From positions 72,352 to 131,703 of the forward strand of contig CACAVP010000001.1 of assembly GCA_902535975.1 (NCBI GenBank): a DNA stretch of 59,352 nucleotides, given 5' to 3'. Position numbers and translations under genes: made by a program. Source of the DNA: an uncultured Gammaproteobacteria bacterium (lineage in GTDB: Bacteria > Pseudomonadota > Gammaproteobacteria > GCA-002705445 > GCA-002716945). This document shows, one piece after another, positions 39,970-48,440 of this stretch. Under the pieces are notes generated by a model. That model was not told the origin of the DNA, made no database searches, and was given only the letters and a program-made list of their open reading frames with translations. Every line of letters starts with the position of its first letter. Positions within the stretch are counted from its first letter, which is position 1.

Positions 39970-41089
39970 TTATAACCCTCTTTTAAGGCTTTCTTGTATG
40001 AAATCATCAAGGTTACCATCGAGAACAGATTGAGTGTTTCCAGTTTCAAAATTTGTTCTTAAATCTTTAATTCTTGAATCATCCAAAACATAAGATCTTA
40101 TTTGATTACCCCAACTTATATCTGATTTCTCAGATTCAACTTGAGTTTTAATTTCATTCTTTTTATTTAACTCATGTGCATATAGTTTAGCACGTAACTG
40201 TTTCATGGCTGATTCTTTATTTTTATGTTGAGATCTATCATTTTGACACTGAACAACAATTTTCGTAGGTAGATGAGTAATACGAACAGCTGATTCAGTC
40301 GTATTAACATGTTGCCCGCCTGCTCCACTTGCTCTAAAAACATCAATTCTAAGGTCAGATGGATTAATTTCTATCTCAAATGAATCATCAACTTGAGGAT
40401 AAATAAAAACTGAGGCAAATGACGTGTGTCTGCGATTACCTGAATCAAATGGTGATTTTCTAACTAAACGATGTACTCCTGTTTCCGTTCTAAGCCAACC
40501 ATAAGCGTAATCTCCATTCACTTTAATCGTGACATTTTTAAAGCCCGCGACTTCGCCCTCACTAGCTTCTGTGATTTCAGATGTAAAGGAGTGCTTTTCA
40601 ATCCATTTAAGATACATTCGCATGATCATAGCAACCCAATCTTGTGCCTCTGTGCCTCCAGATCCAGATTGAATATCTATATAAGCATTTGCGTCATCAT
40701 TTTCACCCCGAAAGAGTTGTGTAAATGAGAGCTTTTCAAGACGTGACGTAGCAGATTTATGTAGCTCTGACATCTCTATTAAAAGTTTTTCGTCATCATG
40801 TGATGAATCATCCAATATTGTCTCAAGGGTGTAAGATATTAAATCTATATCTGAATATATTTCATCTATAGTGGATTTTAATGAAGTATGACTCTTCAGC
40901 TCTTTATTTAAAACTGTTATCTTTGCCCTATCATTCCATATATCAGGATCATTTAGCTTTTCTGTTATGACAGTAATTTTATTATCGAGCGCATCATAGT
41001 CAAACTAACCCCCTTAGCTCGTCCAGCTTTATCTTATTGAGCTTAGTTTGTTCTATAATTTCATTAACTTGATCTACTATTTTACTCAT
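39970..41089 (-). CDS. prfB: Peptide chain release factor 2 with programmed +1 frameshift (about 372 aa)
   Basis: ORF1 is ATG 41089 plus 28 codons ending AGG GGG TTA GTT, then TGA. The +1 frame (DYDALDNK...DPDIWND) is open through to the track ORF 39970-40815, which has SPF and GGQ motifs. Confidence 0.95.
40999..41014 (-). promoter_or_regulatory. RF2 +1 frameshift cassette AGGGGG-TTA-GTT-TGA-C
   Basis: Internal SD, 3-nt spacer, slippery codon and UGAC are positioned as in the canonical AGG GGG UAU CUU UGA C. Confidence 0.9.
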
Positions 41090-41751
41090 TGCGATACATC
41101 ATTATAATATTGAAGCTTATCTATCCACATATCTTTATAGGTATTCAATGACGATGAGTCTGCTTCTAAGATCTCATGCTCAAAAGTATCTTTATATACG
41201 ACAAATATCATAGCTCTCTCAATTTTTGTATTAAACATTTTGTCATGTGCAGATGCATAGGCCGCTAGTTGTTGAAAATGCTCATCAATCTGATAAGAAC
41301 TTTTTTTTCGGAATGATGACTTATAGTCAACCACCGTAAGTTTACCATCTATTTCAGCCAGCAGATCAAGTCTCCCAGCATAGTTACAATCCTCATGAAT
41401 AGTCGCCTCAGAGGCTATAAACTTGTCTATGCAAGGAAAAATATTATCAATTATTGATTTACACAGCTGCAAAGCAATTTTTGAATTGCCAGAATCTTCA
41501 GTTTTTATCTCCTCTTTTTTAATATACTTATCAAGATAACTATGCATCAAATTACCTATTTCAAAAGAATCGGCCTGTTTCGCAGAAAATGTATCCTTTT
41601 GGTTATGTCTAGACAATCTCAGGATGGAAGTTACACTTGGAACCAACTTATCCTCAATTTTGTAATATCTAAAATTATTTTGTTTTATTACTTCATACTC
41701 ACGATAGCTGAATTGAGGTGAGTATGTAATATCTTCATTTATCAAGAACAT
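41086..41751 (-). CDS. PD-(D/E)XK nuclease superfamily protein (RecB/Cas4/MGME1-like exonuclease)
   Basis: PSVTSIL, GNLMH, SE, YAGRLD, VVDYKSS and QQLAAY motifs. Confidence 0.83.
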   Translation of the reverse strand: MFLINEDITYSPQFSYREYEVIKQNNFRYYKIEDKLVPSVTSILRLSRHNQKDTFSAKQADSFEIGNLMHSYLDKYIKKEEIKTEDSGNSKIALQLCKSIIDNIFPCIDKFIASEATIHEDCNYAGRLDLLAEIDGKLTVVDYKSSFRKKSSYQIDEHFQQLAAYASAHDKMFNTKIERAMIFVVYKDTFEHEILEADSSSLNTYKDMWIDKLQYYNDVSQ

Positions 41752-48365: not shown

Positions 48366-48440
48366 TAGGCACGATTGGACTCGAACCAACGACCTCCACC
48401 ATGTCAAGGTGGCGCTCTAACCAAGCTGAGCTACGCGCCT
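48366..48440 (-). tRNA. tRNA-Val (anticodon GAC)
   Basis: Acceptor AGGCGCG/CGTGCCT-A, anticodon arm CCACC-TTGACAT-GGTGG, T-arm GTTGG-TTCGAGT-CCAAT; no encoded CCA. Confidence 0.96.

Follow-up and report, generated by a model that had tools for sequence, protein, structure and literature searches.

The prfB gene lies on the minus strand of the window, by which we mean the whole 59,352-nucleotide stretch of DNA analysed here, and begins with an ATG at 41089 (Table 1). This ATG overlaps with the stop codon (TGA) of the gene upstream, which encodes a 221-amino acid PD-(D/E)XK-like nuclease (ATGA, 41086-41089), and no obvious Shine-Dalgarno (SD) sequence precedes it; initiation of prfB may be translationally coupled to this upstream gene. 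The PD-(D/E)XK-like gene occupies the position held by recJ in E. coli, and lysS comes next after prfB in the window. Translation from the ATG yields a short ORF (ORF0) ending in UGA, and the remainder of release factor 2 (RF2) is encoded in the +1 frame, which reads GAC TAT GAT... for 343 codons up to a TAA at 39972-39970. The joined protein has 372 amino acids, with the junction at residue 29/30 in the context ...ELRGLV-DYDAL.... It scores 468 bits against the NCBIfam model TIGR00020 prfB (cut-off 370), in one alignment that covers residues 20-369 and spans the frameshift junction. This score, together with the SPF and GGQ motifs, identifies the gene as that of RF2.

Table 1. Features of the prfB region and the candidate slipping tRNA gene; coordinates are those of the window.
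Feature	Coordinates	Strand	Remarks
Upstream 221-aa PD-(D/E)XK-like gene	41086-41751	-	Overlaps the prfB start
prfB ORF0	41000..41089	-	29 sense codons and the in-frame UGA
prfB +1-frame ORF	39970..41001	-	RF2 body with SPF and GGQ motifs, DYDALDNK... to ...KRGL, stop TAA
Frameshift cassette AGGGGG-UUA-GUU-UGA-C	40999..41014	-	Read directly from the sequence; core invariant in 35/35 host-family genomes
Internal SD-like stimulator AGGGGG	41009..41014	-	Separated from the P-site codon by 3 nt
Spacer (E-site) codon UUA (Leu)	41006..41008	-	UUA or UUG throughout the host family
P-site shift codon GUU (Val)	41003..41005	-	Canonical codon is CUU; read from the sequence and found in 35/35 relatives
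RF2-specific in-frame stop UGA	41000..41002	-	The next base, C at 40999, makes for a weak termination context
tRNA-Val(GAC), candidate slipping tRNA	48366..48440	-	7.35 kb from prfB

Few known recoding signals are as conserved as the CUU_UGA_C shift site of prfB. A sequence-only reading of the window had claimed that RF2 frameshifting takes place here on GUU-UGA, with the AGGGGG SD, the 3-nt spacer and UGAC all preserved, and the cassette is found exactly where that reading placed it, with each of these elements present. The anti-SD sequence is canonical (CACCUCCUU) in the four host-family genomes whose assembly includes the 3' end of the 16S. Of 175 TGA stops counted at gene ends of the window's genome, 16 are followed by C, fewer than by any other base; this is consistent with TGAC being a weak terminator that genuine gene ends avoid. 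A TAG immediately 5' of UUU (T-TAG-TTT) closes the +1 frame, so that GUU is the only productive shift position.

The host belongs to a GTDB order of uncultured Gammaproteobacteria from the sea, streamlined and AT-rich, made up of a single family with six genera, all genomes of which are MAGs or SAGs. Of the 37 species genomes of this order that we compared, 35 yielded the 5' region of prfB (21 and 14 in two batches). All 35 cassettes read [A/C]GG[G/A]GG-UU[A/G]-GUU-UGA-C at the homologous position. Checking related genomes had been proposed with the sequence-only reading, and none of the 35 carries CTT: the canonical slippery CUU is replaced by GUU in the window and in every relative. In a count by column, the only variation within positions -8 to +6 around the G of GTT is the G/A of the SD and the A/G of the spacer; the GG[G/A]GG core, separated from the shift codon by 3 nt, and the C right after UGA are kept in 35/35, and the codons flanking the cassette vary freely among the same sequences. 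As GTT accounts for only 41% of Val codons in the window's genome, the invariant third base of the shift codon is attributable to an N-U-U-U requirement rather than to codon bias.

The window's genome is a 0.82 Mb draft of 34% GC, 75% complete and in 30 contigs, a state in which the G of GUU might be put down to faulty sequencing or assembly, or prfB taken for a decaying pseudogene. Both are next to impossible, given that GTT-TGA-C recurs in 35 assemblies that are independent of one another and cover different studies, different oceans and six genera, that the +1 ORF is uninterrupted and retains its catalytic motifs, and that a second RF2 gene was not found. These assemblies originate from unrelated projects (GORG single cells, Tara Oceans, Mediterranean, Black Sea, Saanich Inlet, San Francisco Bay), and the G, being fixed in all of them, is real.

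Three observations on individual sequences were made along with this comparison. The peptides DYKLL and DYENSKIRLDEL, which follow putative GUU-UGA prfB sites in other genomes, had no match among the 35 host-family prfB sequences. A 17.5-kb contig deposited as 'Flavobacteriaceae bacterium isolate SP282' (PBJZ01000005.1, locus L068) encodes an RF2 80% identical to that of the window, and its prfB cassette has the host-family form (AGGGGG TTG GTT TGA C); this contig is probably mis-binned and derived from the host gammaproteobacterial family. Finally, locus L004 (G004:C2:656872-657948; JAYQJW010000002.1, pilon-polished) has one A more than its close relative L005 in a short run of A in ORF0, which abolishes the ATG-to-UGA reading frame; the most likely cause is a homopolymer error in a long-read assembly, and not biology.

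Production of RF2 without frameshifting, from a start downstream of the UGA and with ORF0 as a separate leader peptide, had been named as an outcome that would overturn the claim. Gene callers do give a 281-aa ORF starting from a TTG at 40815. This TTG, 62 codons downstream, is the first possible start in the +1 frame, no ATG, GTG or TTG being found between it and the TAG, and its use would remove about 90 N-terminal residues, including segments aligned with the prfB profile, the alignment starting at residue 20. Moreover, the C-terminal end of ORF0 corresponds to a conserved RF2 N-terminal motif, (E/D)(L/I/V)R(G/R)LV. Downstream initiation leaves both this motif and the invariant SD-spacer-GUU-UGA-C unexplained, and only the frameshift model accounts for the two together; we regard a downstream start as extremely unlikely. 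The length of ORF0, which had been pointed out as unusual, is indeed 29 codons and is the same throughout the window's genus; it carries no particular significance in a family where it ranges from 25 to 32 codons.

One RF2 gene plus RF1 was found per host-family genome. Among 723 long ORFs of the window's genome, 56% end with TAA, 24% with TGA and 20% with TAG. With one RF2 gene and about 24% of long ORFs ending in TGA, RF2 is needed and the frameshift site is the only route to it. Judging from the sequences, the prfB of the window very probably has a normal autoregulatory +1 frameshift in a lineage-specific form with GUU (Val) in the P site.

The distribution of this form outside the host order was surveyed in 401 Gammaproteobacteria sampled evenly from ~240 families, with a pattern consisting of GGNGG NNN NTT TGAC, then 45-57 nt, then the codons of P-[D/E]-x-W. 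The pattern matched 125 of the 401 genomes and gave 0 control hits. Apart from the match in the window's own genome, all cassettes (124/124) contain CTT, and they sit at the same position of prfB in the canonical form; CTT is also present in roughly 30 cassettes from other phyla. A tabulation of slippery codons across prfB genes had been recommended as a check; in the present one, GUU is absent from the outgroups sampled. Spacer codons in the 124 outgroup cassettes are TAT, TAC, TTT, CAT or TCN, and never TTA or TTG. A GTT-specific pattern run on ~400 further Pseudomonadota produced 38 matches versus ~37 in the control, and none of the 21 inspected was an RF2 gene.

Published surveys give the same picture. 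Prince et al. 2025 examined 12,753 RefSeq representatives, 8,164 of which have a prfB frameshift, and reported CTTTGA 'in nearly every' motif, with TTT-TTGA in 21 genomes as the sole named exception; their supplementary tables hold no motif sequences (PMC12421855). Atkins et al. 2016 described CUU_U as highly conserved, with UUU_U in a small minority (PMC5009743). GUU is mentioned as a shift codon in neither of these two papers, and a literature search for bacterial frameshifting at 'GUU UGA' found no report. Since the recent surveys of the site were based on RefSeq or complete genomes and the host order is represented by MAGs and SAGs only, this order lies outside their sample. As read from the genomes compared, the GUU-UGA prfB site is a natural exception in bacteria and a form not described before of an established recoding mechanism.

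In the proposed mechanism, the ribosome would translate ORF0 and come to a pause at the UGA-C in its A site, the GUU in the P site being occupied by peptidyl-tRNA-Val. When RF2 is abundant, a short peptide would be released at UGA; when RF2 is scarce, the helix between AGGGGG and the anti-SD, together with a weak E-site tRNA on UUA, would favour a one-base forward move, after which Asp-tRNA would read GAC and full-length RF2 would be synthesized. In the zero frame, tRNA-Val on GUU pairs with a strength equivalent to that of tRNA-Leu(GAG) on CUU. In the +1 frame, tRNA-Val would keep the A35:U pair, with G34 or U34 facing U, and would be left with a C36-U mismatch at position 1, where tRNA-Leu(GAG) forms a G36-U wobble. 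This difference had been put forward in the sequence-only reading and is correct by standard base-pair rules.

On account of the C36-U mismatch, the GUU site should be intrinsically less shifty. This expectation is consistent with the summary of E. coli mutagenesis given by Atkins et al. 2016, according to which CUU_U exceeded by a wide margin the efficiency of every other member of a set of 32 shift codons in E. coli reporters (PMC5009743). A weaker site is a point against the reading of a normally functioning frameshift, as is the outcome of our search for compensating features, which found none that would explain how efficiency is maintained.

The tRNAs reading GUU in the window's genome are tRNA-Val(GAC) and tRNA-Val(UAC), the latter encoded outside the window on contig C13, and the tRNA-Leu set consists of GAG, UAG, UAA and CAA. 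Compensation by tRNA features had been suggested along with the GUU claim, and an altered anticodon loop of tRNA-Val was one candidate; it was rejected, the stem-loop CCACC-UUGACAU-GGUGG of tRNA-Val(GAC) showing no difference between the host family and the CUU-using outgroups. The only family-specific differences in this tRNA are G26/A44, where outgroups have A26/G44, and the lack of an encoded 3' CCA. The location of its gene about 7.4 kb from prfB, to which attention had been drawn, is accurate, but the proximity is simply family-level synteny: the distance is conserved at 7-8.5 kb in the host family (loci L125-L148), whereas the two genes are far apart in outgroups.

Loss of tRNA-Leu(GAG) as the driver of the change was likewise rejected, its gene being present in 33 of the 37 host-family genomes and in all six genera, the window's genome included. 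Bacterial tRNAs with A34 are unusual, tRNA-Arg(ACG) excepted. In a subclade of the host-family genus g2, tRNA-Leu(AAG) replaces tRNA-Leu(GAG), with an anticodon arm CAGUC-CUAAGAA-GGCUG that has A37 for G37, plus C32 and A38. It was located at L183 (G018:C5:55416-55497) and L184 (G043:C31:20514-20595) and, by identity, also in genomes G013, G023 and G042; tRNA-Leu(GAG) was not detected in these tRNA-Leu(AAG) genomes.

With regard to RNA structure, no conserved element was found downstream of the cassette by RNAalifold on 34 host-family sequences (0.0 kcal/mol), and the mean single-sequence z-score of this region was -0.4. The family spacer makes the cassette itself self-complementary, with a 5-bp hairpin GGUUA-[GUU]-UGACY at 40998-41010 on the minus strand (-1.5 kcal/mol, RNAalifold) in which the shift codon GUU forms the triloop. 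This mini-hairpin was discarded as a stimulator: it is made of invariant cassette bases, exhibits no covariation and would melt inside the ribosome. It is probably a coincidence. The sole feature of the cassette that co-varies with GUU in the host order is the spacer codon, UUA or UUG. UUA is, like UAU, a weak all-A/U codon, and such a codon in the E site is reported to promote both the release of the E-tRNA and frameshifting (PMC13245932).

The same protein would be obtained by a +1 shift at the same site without re-pairing of the P-site tRNA, in the manner of Ty3 or of yeast antizyme. By this route, tRNA-Val would stay on GUU or leave it while Asp-tRNA binds GAC out of frame, and the first-position mismatch would be irrelevant. 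Shifts without re-pairing are on record for Ty3 and at the GCG_UGA_C site of S. cerevisiae antizyme (PMC5009743), and both the weakening of classical re-pairing by the C36-U mismatch and a tRNA-Val anticodon stem-loop devoid of compensating change would be in line with such a shift. On the other hand, the presence of GUU in 35/35 genomes, and never of GUC, GUA or GUG, is what U-U-U pairing at positions 2 and 3 predicts; pure A-site occlusion would not need a strict GUU, and the remaining elements of the cassette are those of a slippage-type RF2 site. We consider a shift without re-pairing to be unlikely and infer that slippage, rather than another +1 route, takes place at GUU.

By analogy with known RF2 autoregulation, feedback would buffer a less shifty GUU site, since in a circuit with negative feedback on RF2 a weaker site mainly lowers the RF2 set point. 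RF2 autoregulation in Flavobacterium johnsoniae functions at about 7% frameshifting, far less than in E. coli (Naeem et al. 2024, PMC10798248), and a weaker GUU site can on this basis suffice. Slippage on GUU would have arisen once, by a C-to-G change accompanied by the change of the spacer from UAU to UUR at the base of the host order, and would then have been held by selection.

GUU may have been selected and not just tolerated. Selection could have acted for a lower RF2 level in slow-growing streamlined cells, or GUU could suit a lineage-specific tRNA pool or modification state in which tRNA-Val would be more slip-prone than tRNA-Leu(GAG). This proposal draws on the lack of reversion to CUU, a single transversion, in 35 species and six genera, on the joint change of the spacer codon and the P-site codon, on the G26/A44 of tRNA-Val(GAC) against A26/G44 in outgroups, and on the remodelling of tRNA-Leu(GAG) to tRNA-Leu(AAG) in one subclade. 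It is weakened by the ordinary structure of the anticodon stem-loop, both in tRNA-Val(GAC) and, for most of the family, in tRNA-Leu(GAG), and by a TGA usage (24%) that is not unusually low. We hold selection for GUU to be possible but tentative. The absence of reversion in the sequences suggests that GUU is at least as fit as CUU in the host-order background.

The fixation of GUU through the divergence of six genera constitutes a natural experiment on the conservation of CUU. It indicates that expression of what is apparently the only RF2 gene tolerates a mismatch at position 1 after the shift of frame, and, as the change coincides with that of the E-site codon, it provides a concrete cassette to compare with CUU. 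In practice, annotation and surveys keyed to CTTTGA, or limited to RefSeq or complete genomes, will overlook prfB in an abundant marine group or annotate it wrongly. A further-reaching proposal, which we find rather doubtful, is that the whole order runs RF2 autoregulation on a codon unable to re-pair at position 1. If true, RF2 frameshifting would have no intrinsic need for CUU and for the tRNA-Leu(GAG) wobble long held to explain its conservation, and the transfer of the slip to tRNA-Val would free tRNA-Leu(GAG) from constraint. As a matter of speculation, such a freed constraint could explain the unusual tRNA-Leu(AAG) of the g2 subclade and its remodelled anticodon loop.

Compared with prfB of the E. 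coli type (AGG GGG UAU CUU UGA C), the gene of the window shares the short ORF0, the SD 3 nt upstream, the weak A/U-rich spacer, the NUU-U tetranucleotide, the UGA followed by C, the RF2 body in the +1 frame and the prfB-lysS order. It differs by the use of GUU (Val) and tRNA-Val instead of CUU (Leu) and tRNA-Leu(GAG), by a C-U mismatch instead of a G-U wobble at position 1 upon +1 re-pairing, by a UUA/UUG spacer in its family instead of UAU, and by the junction peptide, RGLV-D instead of RGYL-D. A close bacterial counterpart is the UUU_UGA variant of prfB known from 21 low-GC genomes of Aquificota and Gammaproteobacteria (Prince et al. 2025, PMC12421855). There too, CUU is replaced at the same position, as a rare event and in low-GC genomes, with the SD, the spacing and the UGA kept; however, UUU_U allows perfect re-pairing by tRNA-Phe, which GUU_U does not offer. 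In F. johnsoniae it is the SD:anti-SD pairing that is weak while the codon is still CUU (PMC10798248), whereas the prfB of the window has an altered codon.

As a natural +1 site, GUU-UGA was previously known only from eukaryotic antizyme genes. It occurs in antizyme mRNAs of Cryptococcus neoformans, Aureobasidium pullulans, Cryptomonas and shore crabs, where it is an autoregulatory site with several independent origins (Ivanov and Atkins 2007, PMC1874602). The window gene encodes a bacterial RF2 unrelated to antizyme, and the two kinds of site have in common the P-site codon and the stop, the likeness going no further: antizyme frameshifting takes place on eukaryotic ribosomes, senses polyamines and relies on 5' elements and 3' pseudoknots, whereas in the prfB of the window the sensor is the release factor and the stimulator an SD:anti-SD helix.
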